Below, piece by piece: positions 1 through 24,996 of a stretch of DNA of 45,321 nucleotides; the stretch's first letter is position 1; each line of letters begins with the position of its first letter. Position numbers and translations under genes: made by a program. This stretch comes from Asterionella formosa (Eukaryota): NCBI GenBank assembly GCA_002256025.1, contig NKIB01014275.1, forward strand, positions 1 through 45,321, given 5' to 3'. A model generated the notes under the pieces. That model had not been told where the DNA came from, searched no databases, and saw nothing but the letters and a program-made list of their open reading frames with translations.

Positions 1-80
1 ACAACGATGTACTTGGAACAGCAATAGAATAGTCATAATATTGTAGTTCACCTTTATTCACGATAAGGTTCCCCTCAACA
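1..80 (+). repeat. 5' LTR (3' part only)
   Basis: 76/80 identical to 5392-5471; ends in ...CCCCTCAACA. Confidence 0.95.
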
Positions 81-92
81 GAACTACAATAT
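81..92 (+). promoter_or_regulatory. Primer-binding-site position; complementary to LTR nt 38-49 rather than to a tRNA 3' end
   Basis: GAACTACAATAT directly abuts the LTR end and is the exact reverse complement of ATATTGTAGTTC (38-49); it does not start with TGG. Confidence 0.75.
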
Positions 93-227
93 CTGTTCTT
101 TCTCTCTTGTCCGCACCTGCGAAGTTGCGGGTTTTGTCGACAGTGCAAACCAGCACTGGTCTCAACAATCAACCGTCCAGCACCGCTTGCCCGTTCGCTG
201 TCCCTGTCTCTCAGGCCTTCTTCCACC

Positions 228-1316
228 ATGACGACTCCAATCGTTTCCGCTGTTTTCCCATTCCCTCATCCGCTCTTGACGCCGATCGAGGGCAAACCTA
301 CAGCCTTCACTGTAACCCGCCTTCGCAAGGAACTCTTTGCCAACGCTCGCTCTGTCCACTGTACCAGTGGTGGTGGTGCCAATGGTTTCCTTGGTATTGT
401 CATGGCTGCTGCTCCTTATCTCTTATGTGCCGGTGAACCCTTTGTACCGCCCGAACATCCCGGCATCCAGCCGACACACAGTGCTACTGCAACACAGTCC
501 CAAATCACTGCTGCCAACCGTCTCTTTGACACCTCCCTTGACGCATTCCGCCGTTACTCCCAAATCCGTGAAATTCTCCGACAACAAATTCTAACAGCCA
601 TTGACCCAACCTACTACAACGTTCTGGAAGATGCTACATTTGGATATGCAGACATCACTGTTCTGACCTTACTTGCTCACTTAGAATCTACATATGCAAC
701 ATTGAGTGCAGATGATTTGGAACTCAATCGCATGCGCTTGGCCGATGCTTGGACACCAGAGGAACCTATTGAGCATTTATGGATCCGCATCAAACATCTT
801 CGTGCCATTGCTGATGCTGGTGGGGAACCTTTCTCTGACAGTACTGTCATGCGATTGACTCTTTCTGCTTTAGAACAGGCTGGTGTATATTCTCATAGCA
901 TTCAAACTTGGCGTGATCGCGCTGAGCTGGACCGTACATGGGTTAATTTTTGCCCACATTTCATGCATGCTGATAAGGAACGATTGCGCCTTGCCACCGC
1001 CACCACTGCCGGTTATCATGGTGCCCATGCTGCCATTCAAACCAGTGGCCCTCCCCCATTGCCAGCTATTGCTGCCGCTGCTCGTGCTGTCCCTTCTGGA
1101 TACACTTACAACAATGTCCAATTAGGCTATTGTTGGACTCATGGTCTTACCAAAAACCCTGACCATACCAGTGCAACTTGCAATCATCCAGCTTCTGGCC
1201 ATCAACTCAATGCCACCCTTGATCGACGTCTGGGTGGCAGCGTCCGTCTGTTCAGTGATGGTCCCCGTCCTACCCGGCCACCCCGTGTTTCACCGCCACC
1301 TTCACCACTTGCTTGA
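228..1316 (+). CDS. gag: Gag-like polyprotein, 362 aa
   Basis: First long ORF after the LTR; C-terminal Cys/His motif YCWTHG...HTSATC...GH; ends in TGA in frame with pol. Confidence 0.9.
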   Translation: MTTPIVSAVFPFPHPLLTPIEGKPTAFTVTRLRKELFANARSVHCTSGGGANGFLGIVMAAAPYLLCAGEPFVPPEHPGIQPTHSATATQSQITAANRLFDTSLDAFRRYSQIREILRQQILTAIDPTYYNVLEDATFGYADITVLTLLAHLESTYATLSADDLELNRMRLADAWTPEEPIEHLWIRIKHLRAIADAGGEPFSDSTVMRLTLSALEQAGVYSHSIQTWRDRAELDRTWVNFCPHFMHADKERLRLATATTAGYHGAHAAIQTSGPPPLPAIAAAARAVPSGYTYNNVQLGYCWTHGLTKNPDHTSATCNHPASGHQLNATLDRRLGGSVRLFSDGPRPTRPPRVSPPPSPLA

Positions 1317-3145
1317 TGTGGAGGGGAGCAAGTTGCTGTCGATAATACTATTAACACAAACTTATCTCCCATCACTTGTCCCCCCGTCACACTCATTGCT
1401 GATTCTGGTAGTTCTGGCAATTACGCCACTGTTGATTTATCTGTCATCAACAAACGACCTACCACCAACCCTATCACCATTCAACTTCCTAACGGCAACC
1501 ATGTTAAATCTACACATGAGGCCGAATTATCTTTACCTATGCTCTTACCTGCTGCTTGTCATGTACACATTGTCCCTGGTCTACACAATTGCTCTTTATT
1601 GAGCATTGGACAACTATGTGATTCTGGCTACAAGGTACTCTTCACCAAACTACACATGTCTGTCTTATCTGATGGTCATTGCATCCTTCAGGGCCATCGC
1701 TCCACCTCCACTCGATTATGGCATGTCACCACCGCCACTATTGATCCACCATTGCCTACCCCTACCCACTACGCTGCTACCGCCATTGGCAGTCCCAATG
1801 CACCAGCCCTTGTTGCCTTTGCCCATGCGGCCCTCTTTTCTCCTGTTATCTCCACTTTGGAAAGCGTATTACTCCATGGGTATCTTGTCAATTTTCCAGG
1901 TCTAACCTTAAATACACTACGCAAACATCCCCCTCATTCCATCCCAACCATCAAAGGCCACCTCGATCAAACACGTCAAAACGTACGATCCACACGTGTG
2001 CCCCCAACTATCATTCAGCCTGAACTTCTTGCATCCATTCCTACCAATGTGATGGGTGATGCTGATTGCCACCCTGAGGGTCTTGCAACCCCTACCCATA
2101 TGTGTTTTGCGTCCATTATTGCACCCACAGGCCAAATTTACACTGATCAAACCGGAAAATTCATACTCCCCTCCAGCACTGGAAACAACTACATTATGAT
2201 TTTATATGATTATGACAGCAACTACATTTTCGTTCAGCCCTTTCATAACCAAACCGCTTCCTGCCTCCTTGCAGCATATAAAACATTACATCAACGTTTG
2301 TGCAAAGCTGGCTTATGTCCCAAACTTCAACACCTTGACAATGAGTGTTCTACACTCCTCAAAGACTTCTTGGACGCCGAAGCTATTGACTTTCAGTTGG
2401 TCCCGCCGGCTGTCCATCGTCGCAATGCCGCTGAACGTGCAATTCGCACCTTTCAAAATCATTTCATTGCCGGTCTATGCAGTGTCGACAAACACTTTCC
2501 TCTCCACTTGTGGGACCAACTATTAGTTCAAGCTGAACTTACTCTTAATCTCCTCCGTGGCTCACGCATCAACCCCAAACTGTCTGCTTGGGCACAGGTC
2601 AATGGAACATATGATTTTAACCGTGTCCCCCTTGCTCCACCTGGCTGTCGGGTCCTTGTTCATGCCAAGCCCCAACACCGAACAACATGGGCACCGCATG
2701 CTCTCGATGGTTGGTATGTTGGCCCTGCTGTGGATTCCTATCGCTGCTACCGCATCTGGATGTGGGACACACGTTCAATCAGAATCTGTGATACTGTCTC
2801 GTGGTTACCAACCAAAGTCCACCTACCCTGTAATTCATCCACTGACCTCATCACAACCAGTTTGCAGGACATTGCCTATGCCTTGTTACATCCCACCACT
2901 CGGTCTCCCGTTGCCCCACTCACTGCAACCCACAAAGCTGCTCTCCAGCAGCTCCTTGAAATTCTCTCACCGCCTGAGCTCACCCAACTACCCATCGCTC
3001 CCCTCCTGCATCACCCCATTCCATCACTGAGGGTGCCCGGTACACCCACAGCATCCACCATCCCCCTTCTCCCTGATCCTGATGCCTGTACACCTTTCCC
3101 GGTCTCTCCCGCCCTTGATGGCACTGCCCAACCACTGAGGGTGCT

Positions 3146-3248
3146 TAACCCTAACCCTACCCCTACCGACCCGAGTGTTGTTAACCCTACCCCAAACCCT
3201 AACCCTCACCTCGCCGGTAACCCTAACCTACCCCTAACCCTACCCCTA
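3146..3248 (+). repeat. Degenerate telomere-like (TAACCC/TACCCC) tract in the IN-RT linker
   Basis: Several TAACCC and TACCCC units in clusters, encoding Asn-Pro/Thr-Pro repeats. Confidence 0.75.
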
Positions 3249-5294
3249 GGGCCCCTCCTGCCAGTGGCTGCACGATCCTTCCAGCACCCCCTTGCACTTA
3301 TCGCGATGCTGTTGTGCTGCCCAGTCCCCTACCACCTTCCCCTTCGGACACTTATGACACTACCACTGTGCCCAAGAGCCGTCGTCGCCGTAAAACCACA
3401 CCACGTGATGCACCACATGCCAGCCGTCCCCATACCCAATCTTTGCTTGCCAACTGTGCTCTCTCCGCCCCTCCTCAAACCAGTGCTATTCCCCTGGCCA
3501 CTCATTTTTGTTTCCATGGCACCGCTATCAACCCTGAAAATGGCAAAATTGCTGGATATCGAGAATTATTGACTTGCAGCACTGCTCCGCTGTGGGCCAC
3601 CGCCAACGGCTTAGAAATTGGCCGGTTATTTCAGGGCTTGGGACCCCATTCTGACATGGCCACGGGTACTAATTGCTGTTTTTTCATTCATAAGCATGAA
3701 TTGCCCTCACACAAACGCGCCACTTACATCCGCATTGTGTGTGCCGATCGCCCTGAAAAAACCATTCCCCAACGAGTTCGTTGGACTGCTGGGGGGGATC
3801 GCATCATTTACACTGGAAATGTCAGCACCAAGACTGCTGATCTCACTACTGCAAAATGTTTGTTCAACAGCACCATTAGTACCCCCAATGGCCGCTTCAT
3901 GACTCTGGATTTATCTGATTTTTATCTGGAAAGTCATATACGTGCGCATCCCTATATGGATGATCCCCCCACACATTTAAACCCTCTACAACCTAGCTCC
4001 AAAAATCATTGATGGGCACATCTATGCCGAAATCCGTCGTGGCATGTATGGGCTGCCTCAGGCTGGTAAACTTGCCAATGATCAACTTGCTCAGTTCTTG
4101 CTCCCGCATCATTACCTCCCCTGCCCAGTCACCCCTGGCCTATGGATGGATACCACCAGTGATCTCATGTTTACGCTTGTTGTTGATGATTTCGGTGTAC
4201 GTTACACCAAACGTAGTGACATGGACCGTCTCCTCACCGCTTTACGTACCAAATACCGACTCACAACTGATTGGACTGGCTCTCGTTACATTGGCCTTAC
4301 ACTGACGTGGGACTACGAACATCGCACAGTTGACCTCACTATGCCTGGTTACATTGTTCGTGCTCTACAACGATTCACGCACACCACCCCAACACACCCA
4401 CAACATGCCCCCCATGCCTGGACTGCACCTAGTTATGGCGCTCGCCAGCAATTTGTTGTTTCTGACGTCACACCTGTCCTTGACCTCCATGATAAAACAC
4501 ATGTGCAAGAGATTCTTGGTACTTTATTGTATTATGCCCGTGCTATTGACTGTACTATGTTGCCGGCCCTTGGTACATTGGCTACACAACAAGCAACCCC
4601 CACTGTGGCTACCTTGACTGCTATTACTCACCTTCTCAATTATTGTGCCACTCATCCTGAGGCCACACTTCGCTTTACTGCCAGTGACATGGTCCTCCAT
4701 GTTGAAAGCGATGCTTCCTATCTCTCTGAAACACGTGGTTGCTCCTGCGCTGCCGGCATTCACTTTCTCAGCTGTAAACCCTTGTCTCCGCCTAGCCTCA
4801 CTACGTCCATCCCTCCTCTTAACGGTGCTATTTACGTACACTGTCAAATTCTTAAGGAGGTTTTATCAAGTGCTGCTGAGGCCGAATTAGCTGCTTTGTT
4901 CCACAATGGCAAAGAGGCATATGCTATTCGCAACATTCTTGTTGAGCTTGGTCATCCCCAACCTTCTACCCGTATTGTCACCAATAATAGCACTGCCAGT
5001 GGCATTGCCAATGATACCGTCCGACAAAAACGCTCCAAAGCTATGGATATGCGTTATTACTGGGTACGAGATTGGGTTCGCCAAGGCCAATTTCTTGTAT
5101 ACTGGAAAAAAGGTAGTTTGAATCGTGCTGATTATTTCACTAAACATCATCCCGCTTCCCATCATATGTTGATGTGCCCGCACTATCTCCATTGCCCTCC
5201 ATCCCTCCCTAGTCCTCCTAACTATTATGCGTGCTTGGCTTCCGATGCTGATCTCATCTCCACCCCAGCTCCTGTTCTTCTGCCTGAATCTGTT

Positions 5295-5304
5295 GGTGAG
5301 GGTG
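5295..5304 (+). promoter_or_regulatory. Polypurine tract
   Basis: GGTGAGGGTG immediately 5' of the TGTT start of the 3' LTR. Confidence 0.75.
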
Positions 5305-5471
5305 TGTTAATATCTGCATATGATGCTCCATACATGCGCCGTACAAACCATACCGGCGCAGCCACCAGATTAGGTACATGCATGAGTGCTAACAACGATG
5401 TACTCGAAACAGCAATAGAATAGTCATAATATTGTAGTTCACCTTTATTCATGACAAGGTTCCCCTCAACA
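5305..5471 (+). repeat. 3' LTR, 167 bp
   Basis: TGTT...AACA termini, preceded by the PPT; last 80 nt match window nt 1-80. The left boundary is inferred from the PPT and the TG. Confidence 0.88.
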
Positions 5472-6444
5472 ATAGAACCTGGCAGTATGGAAAACGACCC
5501 AGCGTCTCGGCAAATAGTTGAAGTGCACTCTAGGAGTGGTACGCATATGTCAAATGATAATCATCTACAGGTACCTGTACTGGATATGGTATCAGGTCCT
5601 GGTAAGAAAAAACTTTAGTTCATAAAATACTATAAAATGTTAAGTACAAACCATCCACATCCGCCAATAAAATGAATGCGCCGCGAAATCTTGATGCTTT
5701 TTAAATTTACTGTGCCTCTTTCTTCACCGACTCAGTGGGAACCGGCGAGATTCGGGTGGGACCTTTGACCTTTGGAGGACGAATACGGCGGCGAGTGGGC
5801 TGCTGAGCTGGTATTCTCCAGTGTGAGCATAACGGGAAATGAAAGCGAGCGATGCATGGCGCAATGGGTGACCGGTGGTAACTGAGATTCAAGTCAACGC
5901 GAACGCGACGGAACGGAATGGGTCAGGTGGCTGGTGGGAGTGCCGCGCTTGTGCTGTTGAGCTTTGTTCGTGTCCGCTATGGAGATTTTCAAGTGGTTGT
6001 ATTGTTTCTTCTGTTCAATGGAAAGGAAGCAAGCAACGGAGCGGAGCAGAGCAGAGCGGCAAAGTCAAAGTCTCTATTGTGATTGCTTATTGAATCCGTT
6101 ATTTGTTCTAGCGTGACTCACTCATGACCTGCCTATCTTGATGATCAACTTTAGCGGATCAGTTTTACCGACACTCGAAAGGAACAATCGAATGCCTCCT
6201 CCTCCCTTGTCCTCGTGACGAATTTTTCCTCTTTTCTTGTATTGATATTATAAATCTATTATTGCAGCACCGACTTTGATTACCGTCAAGGCCAATTCCT
6301 CCGCCGAATACCGGTATGTGCTGCCAGTTATGAGAATGCGATGGGTTGCGATGCGATGCGCTTGCTTTTCACGTCGTCTGATACAAAATTTCCAGCACTC
6401 TCAAATATCAGACGAGTGAACGATTCTCCCTTAAAAACCGTCTT

Positions 6445-22458: not shown

Positions 22459-24996
22459 ATGTCACATCAAGCAAGTCTGAATTCCTTCTTTGGAGCCAAA
22501 AATTCAACACATGGATTAGCACCGACGAAACCGGCAACACCACCGAGGGAAAAGGAAAAGGAAAATGCCATGCCTCCCCCCAATGCTCTCGTCGACACGG
22601 ACGACGACTATGACGACCCAGTCGTTACTACCAACAGGTTCAAGAAAAGAACTGCTAGTAAATTGACAGGCAAAGGGCAGGATAAACTCCTCCAGAACTC
22701 AAAGAATCGCACCTCTGGTATTGTTCCTGGCAATGGACAAGAAATGTTGCTTCAGGAGTCCAAGCGTGTCAAGAATGAGATGACGCCTGCATGCGAAGAT
22801 TCAGTAATCAAGAAGGAATCTAAAATTCAGAGTACGGACGAGATCGCCTTTTACCTTGATGAGGACGAGGACGAGGACGCTTTTGAAGGGTCTGCCGCTA
22901 CGGACGACGAATCGGAATCTAAAAGGAAATCCATCAATACCGTCCTCAAATCTTCGTCAAAAGGCTCTAAACCCACAAAGGGGCAACAAACCATTGCGGC
23001 TGCAAAATCGAACGATTCACTCCTCGGTTTAGCCAATTGGAAGACAGGATCCTCTATTCCTTATCTGGCCCTTTGTAACACCTTTGAACAGATCGAACAA
23101 ATCACGTCACGACTTGCCATTCAGGAACTGCTGACGGATCTATTTCGGCAAGTATTGATGCTCACTCCCAAGGATATGTACGACCTTATTTACTTGTCTT
23201 CCAATTCTGTTGCACCTGCTTATGAGTGCATTGAATTGGGCATTGGAGATGCCATTTTGATTAAGGCTATCGGTGAAGCCTACGGGACCAATCCAAGTAT
23301 GATTAGGCAACAATATCAGCAAGAAGGTGATCTAGGAACAGTCGCCAAGGTGAGCAAAGGCAAACAACGTACATTGGGATTTGGAGTTACTCCCAAATCA
23401 CTCTTGGCCAAAGAAGTTTTGGCAGTTTTAAGAGAAATTGCTAATACGACGGGTACCAATTCGCAAAAATACAAGGTGGACAAAATTAAAAAATTGTTGG
23501 TCCGGGCCCAAGGGCCAGAAGCGAAATATATCATTCGGGCCTTGCAAGGTAAATTACGAATTGGATTGGCTCAGAGCACCGTCTTGATTAGTCTGGCCCA
23601 TGCTTTCACGCTGTCACCTCCATCGACGTTGAACGAGGAATCCACGTACAGCAAGGATGACATGCCCCAAGAGGCTAATGAATATGCTAATGCCAAGCAT
23701 GGATCATCGGCTAAACTAGAAGCGGCCGTACAAATTATCAAAAAAGCCTATTCCGAAGTTCCTTCGTACGACGCCATCCTAGATGCTGCTCTGTCATCCC
23801 CCCTCCACCACTTGCACGTTGTGTGCACCCTGACGCCTGGCATTCCTGTGGCACCCATGTTGGCCAAACCTACAAAGTCGATTCAAGAAGTTTTAAAAAG
23901 ATTGAATGGACAGCGGTTCACATGTGAATTCAAATACGACGGTGAACGTGCGCAAGTTCACATGCTGAGCGATGGAACCACACGTGTTTTCTCGCGCAAT
24001 TTGCTCGACACTTCCGACAAGTATCCAGAAGTGCCAATTTACGTAAAGGAAGCATGTCATGAGTGTGTGAAGTCCTTTGTTATGGACACGGAAGTGGTGG
24101 CGTTCAATCCGGTGACCGGAAAGCTGGTACCCTTTCAAATTTTATCAACCCGGAAGAAGTCAGAAGAATCGGCTGAGACGGCTAAGGTACAAGTCATTTG
24201 TCAAGCATTTGACCTAATGTATTTGAATGGTCAATCCTTGCTAAATAAAACCCTTTACGAACGCCGAGACTTGTTACGTGCTCATTTTTCTGCAGTTGAA
24301 TCTAAGTTTCAATTTGCTGTTTCCTTGGACCATGTGGAAGATGGGGATACGACCATGTTGGAAGAATTTTTGGAAACTGCTGTCAAGGGCCAATGCGAAG
24401 GACTAATGGTAAAAACGTTGGATAGCGATGCATTCTACGAGCCTTCTCGTCGATCCTTGAATTGGCTCAAGTTAAAGAAGGATTATTTGGAAGGCTTGGG
24501 GGACAGCGTTGATTTAGTCCCACTCGGCGCCTACAATGGTCGGGGGAAGCGAACGGGATATTATGGAGCATATTTATTGGCCTGTTTTGATCCCGACACT
24601 GAGGAATTTCAGTCGGTCTGCAAGATCGGTACAGGATTTTCCGACGACGATCTCAAAACTCTTCATGATTTGTTTCAAGAGCACATCATCCCGCAAAAGC
24701 ATAACCAGTATATTTCATCAGATACTTTGGATTGCGATGTGTGGTTTGATCCTGTTCAAGTTTGGGAAGTCAAGGCGGCTGACTTGTCGAAGTCGTCGAC
24801 ACACAAAGGTGCACTTGGAAAGCTGGGCGAAGCAGGACGTGGGATTGGCTTGCGCTTTCCCCGGTTTGAACGACTTCGGCCGGATAAGAAACCAGAACAG
24901 GCCACAACAAGTGAACAAATTTTGGAGATGTACTACAATCAAGACAGTGTTGCCAATGAAGGTGCTGGAGAAAATGACGATGATGATGGAATCTAG
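22459..24996 (+). CDS. LIG1: DNA ligase I (ATP-dependent), 845 aa
   Basis: N-terminal PIP box QASLNSFF; motif I EFKYDGERAQ; EGLMVK, WLKLKKDY, LRFPRF. Confidence 0.97.
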   Translation: MSHQASLNSFFGAKNSTHGLAPTKPATPPREKEKENAMPPPNALVDTDDDYDDPVVTTNRFKKRTASKLTGKGQDKLLQNSKNRTSGIVPGNGQEMLLQESKRVKNEMTPACEDSVIKKESKIQSTDEIAFYLDEDEDEDAFEGSAATDDESESKRKSINTVLKSSSKGSKPTKGQQTIAAAKSNDSLLGLANWKTGSSIPYLALCNTFEQIEQITSRLAIQELLTDLFRQVLMLTPKDMYDLIYLSSNSVAPAYECIELGIGDAILIKAIGEAYGTNPSMIRQQYQQEGDLGTVAKVSKGKQRTLGFGVTPKSLLAKEVLAVLREIANTTGTNSQKYKVDKIKKLLVRAQGPEAKYIIRALQGKLRIGLAQSTVLISLAHAFTLSPPSTLNEESTYSKDDMPQEANEYANAKHGSSAKLEAAVQIIKKAYSEVPSYDAILDAALSSPLHHLHVVCTLTPGIPVAPMLAKPTKSIQEVLKRLNGQRFTCEFKYDGERAQVHMLSDGTTRVFSRNLLDTSDKYPEVPIYVKEACHECVKSFVMDTEVVAFNPVTGKLVPFQILSTRKKSEESAETAKVQVICQAFDLMYLNGQSLLNKTLYERRDLLRAHFSAVESKFQFAVSLDHVEDGDTTMLEEFLETAVKGQCEGLMVKTLDSDAFYEPSRRSLNWLKLKKDYLEGLGDSVDLVPLGAYNGRGKRTGYYGAYLLACFDPDTEEFQSVCKIGTGFSDDDLKTLHDLFQEHIIPQKHNQYISSDTLDCDVWFDPVQVWEVKAADLSKSSTHKGALGKLGEAGRGIGLRFPRFERLRPDKKPEQATTSEQILEMYYNQDSVANEGAGENDDDDGI

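Follow-up and report, generated by a model that had tools for sequence, protein, structure and literature searches.

A Ty1/copia retrotransposon at the beginning of the window, i.e. of the whole stretch of 45,321 nucleotides analysed here, carries in its LTR a short sequence that pairs perfectly with the predicted primer binding site (PBS) directly behind the LTR, and this LTR/PBS complementarity is preserved by compensatory change across its relatives. The element probably uses Tf1-like self-priming in place of a host tRNA, and the same would apply throughout its Ty1/copia clade. What is likely to be new here is a clade-wide and covariation-backed prediction of self-priming in a copia lineage whose hosts are probably diatoms.

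The inverted repeat was recovered by a repeat search of the window. Its arms, ATATTGTAGTTC at 38-49 and GAACTACAATAT at 81-92, are 100% complementary over 12 nt and are separated by 31 nt; pairing stops at both ends of the 12-bp helix, as positions 37/93 and 50/80 are unpaired. The direct repeat that defines the LTR ends at 80, so the PBS follows the LTR without a spacer. A preliminary description had pointed out the perfect reverse complement, the zero spacer and the lack of TGG at the PBS, all of which are borne out by these searches. It had also noted that the small stem between the arms (ACCTT at 50-54, AAGGT at 65-69) is unchanged in the 3' LTR, and indeed no mismatch between the LTR copies falls into it. 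The position "LTR nt 38-49" given there for the arm had to be corrected, as these are window coordinates: the 5' LTR is truncated by the window start, and window base 38 is therefore LTR base 125.

An anchored 12-nt complement was found in 2 of 200,000 LTR shuffles, and a 12-mer whose perfect reverse complement lies at most 167 nt upstream occurs at only 4 of 45,209 window positions. The RNA from 33 to 100, containing the helix and the inner hairpin, folds with -15.2 kcal/mol (z = -4.17), and none of 200 shuffles was as stable. A chance origin of the 12-nt complementarity is very unlikely. For the copy of the arm in the 3' LTR, the repeat search detected no complementary partner downstream, and the helix can consequently form at the 5' end only.

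The features of the element are compiled in Table 1. It is about 5.56 kb long and has an LTR of 167 bp, in which the arm occupies bases 125-136. Three lines of evidence place the LTR start at 5305. A DNA contig from a public run links 5391 to 1 and extends by another 87 bases on its short side, and five contigs from the same run set diverge just before 5305. In the near-identical metagenome copy L003 (L numbers denote loci), flanking sequence is followed by the LTR start TGTTAATATC, 124 nt ahead of the arm. Finally, 21 of 38 scanned loci have GGTGAGGGTG followed by TGTT at a distance of 120-205 nt upstream of the 3' arm, 9 have a shorter or variant form, and 8 lack it. Where both LTR copies are covered by the window (1-80 and 5392-5471), 76 of 80 positions are identical (95%). 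The mismatches, at 14, 16, 61 and 64, all lie outside the arms and the ACCTT/AAGGT stems, the last two being in the loop of the inner hairpin.

Table 1. Predicted features of the Ty1/copia element, in window coordinates.
Feature	Position	Strand	Basis and remarks
3' part of the 5' LTR (LTR bases 88-167)	1..80	+	Direct repeat with 5392-5471; first 87 bases cut off by the window start
TCATAA, initiator-like motif; predicted start T36	33..38	+	Suggested by invariance and fit to a diatom motif
LTR arm, proposed self-primer ATATTGTAGTTC	38..49	+	Covaries with the PBS in relatives; 3' end C49 would pair with G81
Small hairpin ACCTT/AAGGT, 10-nt loop, stacked on the long helix	50..69	+	Minimum-energy fold
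Primer binding site (predicted) GAACTACAATAT	81..92	+	Adjoins the LTR, without TGG
gag ORF, 362 aa	228..1316	+	In-frame TGA at 1314-1316; 54 homologues
pol: protease (DSG), integrase, RT, RNase H; broken in the window copy	1317..5423	+	Domain matches, translation
Polypurine-tract-like GGTGAGGGTG	5295..5304	+	Directly 5' of the 3' LTR; inside the pol frame (Gly-Glu-Gly-Val)
3' LTR, 167 bp, TGTTA...CAACA	5305..5471	+	Direct repeat; pol overlaps its first 119 nt
Primer-arm copy in the 3' LTR	5429..5440	+	No complementary partner downstream

By its predicted pol order (PR-INT-RT-RH) and its copia-type RT (RVT_2), the element is assigned to Ty1/copia (Pseudoviridae). The SH3_retrovirus match, which represents the integrase C-terminal domain (ORF 1539-3572), is located upstream of RVT_2 (ORF 4044-5423), with Pfam scores for the integrase and RT domains of this broken copy that fall below the curated cut-offs. 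In the ESM Atlas, the RT is closest to a cluster named 'Ty1/Copia family ribonuclease HI' (score 0.97). Translation of pol continues in the frame of gag behind the TGA and reaches a TAG at 5421-5423, so that U3 is mostly coding. L001, a copy of 97.6% identity, is intact, with 397 codons in gag and 1377 in pol. Against it, the window copy shows losses of 6 nt after 3160, of 1 nt after 3226 and of 20 nt after 3937, which are also seen against contigs of public runs. These losses shift the pol frame, and the window copy could therefore move only with proteins supplied by intact relatives.

A single in-frame stop separates gag and pol in the 13 sequences compared (the window and 12 loci); it is TGA in 10 and TAG or TAA in 3. 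A conserved GAGGGGAGC-like word (variants GAGGGAAGC and GAGGGGACC) follows 4-6 nt behind the gag stop in 11 of the 13, and is replaced by GCGGCGGGAGCC in L008 and L009. This pattern, seen at 1314-1329 of the window and in L001, L003, L026, L028, L034, L038, L040, L043 and L050, suggests stop-codon readthrough with a downstream signal.

Homologues of gag number 54, with identities of 22-99%. A 16-row gag alignment retrieved 58 loci on metagenome contigs, a wider 38-row alignment being too little conserved for such a search. In a scan of the 450 nt preceding gag that did not use the window sequence as a guide, perfect inverted repeats were sought with arms of 9 bp or more, 10-90 nt apart. At least 100 nt upstream of gag are available at 49 of the 58 loci, and 9 are shorter. 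Of the 49 assessable loci, 38 have a perfect inverted repeat of 9-14 bp at the homologous place and three (L019, L039, L056) a version with one mismatch, which means that the helix is kept in 41. The gap between the arms is 20-41 nt, mostly 30-32 nt, and in the 38 loci with a perfect repeat the 3' arm sits 73-211 nt ahead of gag. L034 and L040 contain both LTR copies, and in each of them the LTR is followed directly by the first base of the 3' arm. Among the aligned relatives, the helix always ends at the LTR border on its inner side and has a variable outer end.

The helix is absent in the remaining eight assessable loci. The contigs of L015 and L035 begin 11 and 3 nt before the LTR end and contain the 3' arm only, and those of L030, L031 and L044 begin downstream of the LTR end. 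L058 is a distant relative with only 232 nt upstream. In L013, 14 nt of contig precede the conserved ACCTTT; part of the arm is retained there, without a downstream complement. L016 has an unrelated upstream sequence. Two further arrangements were observed among the loci. L028 (1-8911) consists of two related, different elements arranged head to tail that are 79% identical over 3 kb, and its first 143 nt, which are part of an LTR, are repeated with 93% identity at the element junction (5482-5624). A second conserved leader hairpin, CTTATAG...CTATAAG, occurs shortly after the PBS in a single subgroup, namely in L005, L011, L017, L018, L039 (495-548) and L045.

Looking for complementarity that covaries in related families had been proposed in the preliminary description, and such covariation is found. 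The alignment comprised 34 distinct rows, the window and 33 loci; eight rows were dropped because they start near the contig start (L001), equal the window in this region (L002, L003), are duplicates (L009, L024, L038, L045) or contain N (L028). Both sides have changed in 11 of the 12 helix pairs. Paired cells amount to 90.4%, even with the outer pairs misaligned in two rows, and sliding the partner by 1-3 columns reduces this value to 25-40%. The covariation score was reached by none of 500 shuffles. In helix 1, the pair types beyond the commonest number 23, which sets a tree-independent floor on the number of changes. RNAalifold, given no structure, predicted the same helix with 10 pairs, 9 of them compensatory, and the helix is present in the minimum-energy fold of all 34 rows. 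Arm haplotypes number 21 among 42 sequences; an LTR arm pairs on average at 9.7 of 10 positions with its own PBS, compared with 6.2 of 10 with the PBS of another element.

A PBS of the type that matches a tRNA 3' end was not encountered in the clade. The PBS haplotypes start with GAG (11), GAA (6), GTT (3) or TAC (1), and none of the 21 with TGG. No TGG occurs within 60 nt after the PBS in 19 of 22 representative leaders. These leaders also contain no alternative conserved PBS-like block: no 10-mer is common to more than three of the 22, and the 8-mer with the widest distribution, found in 5 of 22, covers the ATG of gag. ARAGORN predicted no tRNA gene in the window or in 26 loci. The only Rfam match in 1-400 is RsaOG, which was rejected as a chance hit at 19 bits against a threshold of 50.

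CATAA is present in 34 of 34 aligned rows, 0-5 nt 5' of the arm, as TCATAA in 22, CCATAA in 10 and GCATAA in 2; the U3 sequence upstream of it cannot be aligned among the relatives. In the L014 group, the 14-bp arm begins directly after CAT. A coding constraint on CATAA was considered and rejected, since the relatives have their pol stop at positions between -143 and +3, counted from the start of the arm. An Inr-like consensus, TCAH+1W, has been proposed for genes of Phaeodactylum and for promoters of diatom viruses, as far as described in the available text of PMC4686930. The initiator-like TCA at 33-35 singled out in the preliminary description turns out to be part of an invariant motif, and TCATA of the window fits this consensus. 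On this basis, +1 would fall on window T36 and the arm would begin at +3, about 3 nt away from where the 5' end of the RNA is predicted. Conservation and fit to this degenerate motif hint that transcription may start at CATAA, around base 36, and CATAA could instead be a poly(A)-type or other signal. The public runs compared, one DNA and three RNA-library runs, all consist of assembled contigs, which are unable to show transcript starts or poly(A) sites.

In the proposed mechanism, transcription would begin in the 5' LTR at the conserved TCATAA, and RNA bases 38-49 would fold back over the 31-nt U5/R stretch and pair with 81-92. For this fold-back step, the evidence consists of the pairing potential and its conservation. 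By analogy with Tf1, the RNase H of the element would then cut the RNA after C49, and the freed 3' end on G81 would be extended over 80 down to 50, yielding a strong-stop DNA of 31 nt. This strong-stop DNA would be transferred to the matching stretch in the 3' LTR, and plus-strand synthesis would copy the attached primer, such that the PBS would be rewritten from the LTR arm in each cycle. Such a renewal would explain why the arms are perfect in 38 of 41 copies. Both primer cleavage and primer use in the window element are thus envisaged on the model of Tf1.

Two features of the clade count against self-priming. R plus U5 would comprise only 20-41 nt, which would be short for strand transfer. 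The inner hairpin, which is important in Tf1, is not clade-wide here. The ACCTT/AAGGT hairpin is found in a closer subgroup, and in the L026/L029 group its place is taken by another stem. No inner hairpin is present in the L014 and L032 groups, in which the arms are only 20 nt apart, or in the RNAalifold consensus of the 34 rows, and the hairpin was therefore rejected as a clade-wide feature.

Covariation proves that the arms pair, but not what the pairing is for. The helix could thus be a structural or regulatory RNA element, with priming carried out by something unrecognised, which we regard as unlikely. In variants of this explanation, the helix could mask a poly(A) signal or a cleavage site, exclusively at the 5' end, could contribute to packaging or dimerisation, or could mediate circularisation via the 3' LTR arm and the 5' leader. 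Masking restricted to the 5' end would be possible because the partner lies outside the LTR, and a helix that forms only there, with no partner after the 3' LTR, agrees with such a function; moreover, CATAA is readable as a poly(A)-type signal and the transcription start is predicted from sequence only. A structural role does not account for the place of the 3' arm, which always begins at the first post-LTR base, i.e. where a PBS is located, in leaders that have neither another conserved block nor a TGG-type PBS. Nor does it account for a helix with a fixed inner and a variable outer end; a fixed inner end would follow from a need for the arm's 3' end to face the last base of the LTR.

It is also conceivable, but highly improbable in our assessment, that the primer is a host tRNA-derived fragment or another small RNA with the sequence of the LTR arm, in which case the arm would be a by-product or would mimic this RNA. 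At its inner end, the arm has a conserved TAGCTC with an A behind it (alignment columns 23-30; TAGTTC in the window, 44-50), which we take to resemble the start of the D-arm of many tRNAs and which may reflect chance or a trace of a tRNA-derived origin. Half-tRNAs are used as primers by copia elements according to the available text of PMC6317226. However, each of the 21 PBS variants matches its own LTR and a separate host RNA would thus be needed for each of them, the outer half of the arm is A/T-rich and variable, Rfam returned no tRNA-like match in 1-400, and a tRNA fragment gives no reason for the LTR to carry the primer sequence. Priming in trans, by a short promoter-proximal LTR transcript of the same or another copy that anneals to the PBS without fold-back or cleavage, shares the sequence evidence with self-priming, and would suit a clade in which the inner hairpin that supports fold-back in Tf1 is not conserved. 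Here, it is the short and fairly constant spacing of the arms (20-41 nt, mostly 30-32 nt) that suggests an intramolecular fold, and we give priming in trans very little weight. Self-priming, the reading already put forward in the preliminary description, is the best explanation and probably correct; its evidence is a helix that is kept and covaries in the relatives.

More tentatively, and with considerable doubt about the sum of its parts, a broader picture can be drawn. An entire and widespread aquatic copia clade, probably of diatoms, would self-prime without any tRNA primer, with a primer fused to the initiator, so that only transcripts from the LTR initiator replicate, and with a strong-stop DNA of 20-41 nt. 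This mode would have arisen independently of Tf1/sushi and plant TAR elements or else would represent an ancestral priming mode of LTR elements, and the D-arm-like TAGCTC may link tRNA priming and self-priming.

The hosts of the clade are probably diatoms; the one pointer to them is the label of the nearest ESM Atlas RT cluster, in which all four labelled members are Bacillariophyta. The cluster names of four gag relatives were not informative. In viral contigs, no relatives of the intact L001 pol were found, and a terminal poly(A) or poly(T) run was absent from all 58 loci. The large ORFs at 22459-44500 of the window contain domains of DNA ligase (22459-24996), glycosyltransferase, SpoU and Methyltransf_4 methyltransferase, radical SAM, Brix and EGF type, a gene neighbourhood that is consistent with an ordinary eukaryotic host. 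Window positions 1-1400 are present in 20 of the 24 public runs listed, from 15 studies, and 18 runs hold at least half of the sampled words. Among these runs are freshwater, lake, river, estuary and marine metagenomes and six RNA libraries, in which presence is no proof of transcription. The host or the element family thus seems to be widespread in aquatic samples.

Self-priming would make these elements independent of host tRNAs and would tie their replication to the choice of transcription start. Such a dependence has been shown for Tf2, where a downstream start gives an RNA that is unable to prime (PMC5341516, available text). If the prediction is correct, self-priming is the route taken by a large copia group of abundant algae in aquatic habitats, and LTR annotation tools that seek a tRNA-type PBS would score such elements poorly. 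The 21 covarying arm pairs represent natural compensatory mutants.

Self-primed reverse transcription has been shown experimentally for Tf1 and Tf2 of Schizosaccharomyces pombe, which belong to the Tf1/sushi group of Ty3/gypsy elements. According to the available text of PMC7175516 and PMC5341516, the PBS of Tf1 adjoins the LTR and complements the first 11 bases of its own RNA; the two are brought together by RNA structure, and an RNase H cut frees the primer. As in Tf1, the window element combines a PBS beside the LTR that is complementary to the predicted RNA start region with the lack of a tRNA-type PBS. Different from Tf1, in which the arm starts at base 1, the arm of 9-15 bp begins 0-5 nt after the predicted start, only 20-41 nt separate the arms, and the inner stem-loop is not conserved; moreover, the window element is known from sequence alone. 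Elements of Tf1/sushi have the order PR-RT-RH-INT, whereas the integrase precedes RT in the window element, which therefore does not belong to this group.

Retroviral U5-IR and U5-leader stems around the PBS support the initiation of reverse transcription. A U5/leader helix near the PBS is mentioned for Rous sarcoma virus (PMC5445492, available text). Unlike these stems, which flank a PBS complementary to a tRNA, the helix described here belongs to a clade without such a PBS. In fungal GalEa copia elements, a Conserved Hairpin Site replaces the PBS, and the authors found no complement in the LTR, as stated in the available text of PMC5445492. The window element resembles GalEa as a copia element with a conserved structure at the PBS position and without a tRNA-type PBS. 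It differs in that the GalEa feature is a local palindrome and hairpin, whereas 81-92 is not palindromic and has its partner in the LTR.

The CoDi elements of diatoms (Maumus et al. 2009) are described in PMC2806351 as 5.2-8.1 kb long, with LTRs of 153 bp or more and with at most one stop separating gag from pol. Compared by description only, the window element is similar, with about 5.56 kb, a 167-bp LTR and one in-frame TGA. The main text of the CoDi paper (PMC2806351), as far as available, is silent on self-priming, tRNA and primer binding. Nor is self-priming described for elements of diatoms or other stramenopiles in the main texts of the papers searched. The preliminary description had proposed self-priming in the copia superfamily and had been aware of no such description for diatom CoDi elements, which agrees with this literature. 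Within the superfamily, self-priming has already been predicted for plant TAR elements (available text of PMC6317226), and the window clade is thus not the first.

In that study (Neumann 2019), self-priming was predicted for the Ty1/copia TAR lineage of plants, and an earlier proposal was cited for Houba and Osr-1. For Houba, it was the only source of self-priming in the papers searched, and a covariation analysis for TAR was not found in the available text (PMC6317226). The criterion used there requires complementarity over at least 10 bp between the LTR and a region whose first base lies 0-5 bp behind it, and the window element has an LTR complement of 12 bp that starts 0 bp after the LTR. 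TAR elements reside in land plants, and their likeness to the window element is one of published description, as no TAR sequences were compared. Whether hairpin or self-priming preceded tRNA priming in LTR elements is a question raised in PMC3601003, on which a second copia lineage would bear. Like Houba and Osr-1, the window element is a Ty1/copia element with such a complement beside its LTR, and its clade would add to the plant TAR prediction a second and far-removed copia lineage.
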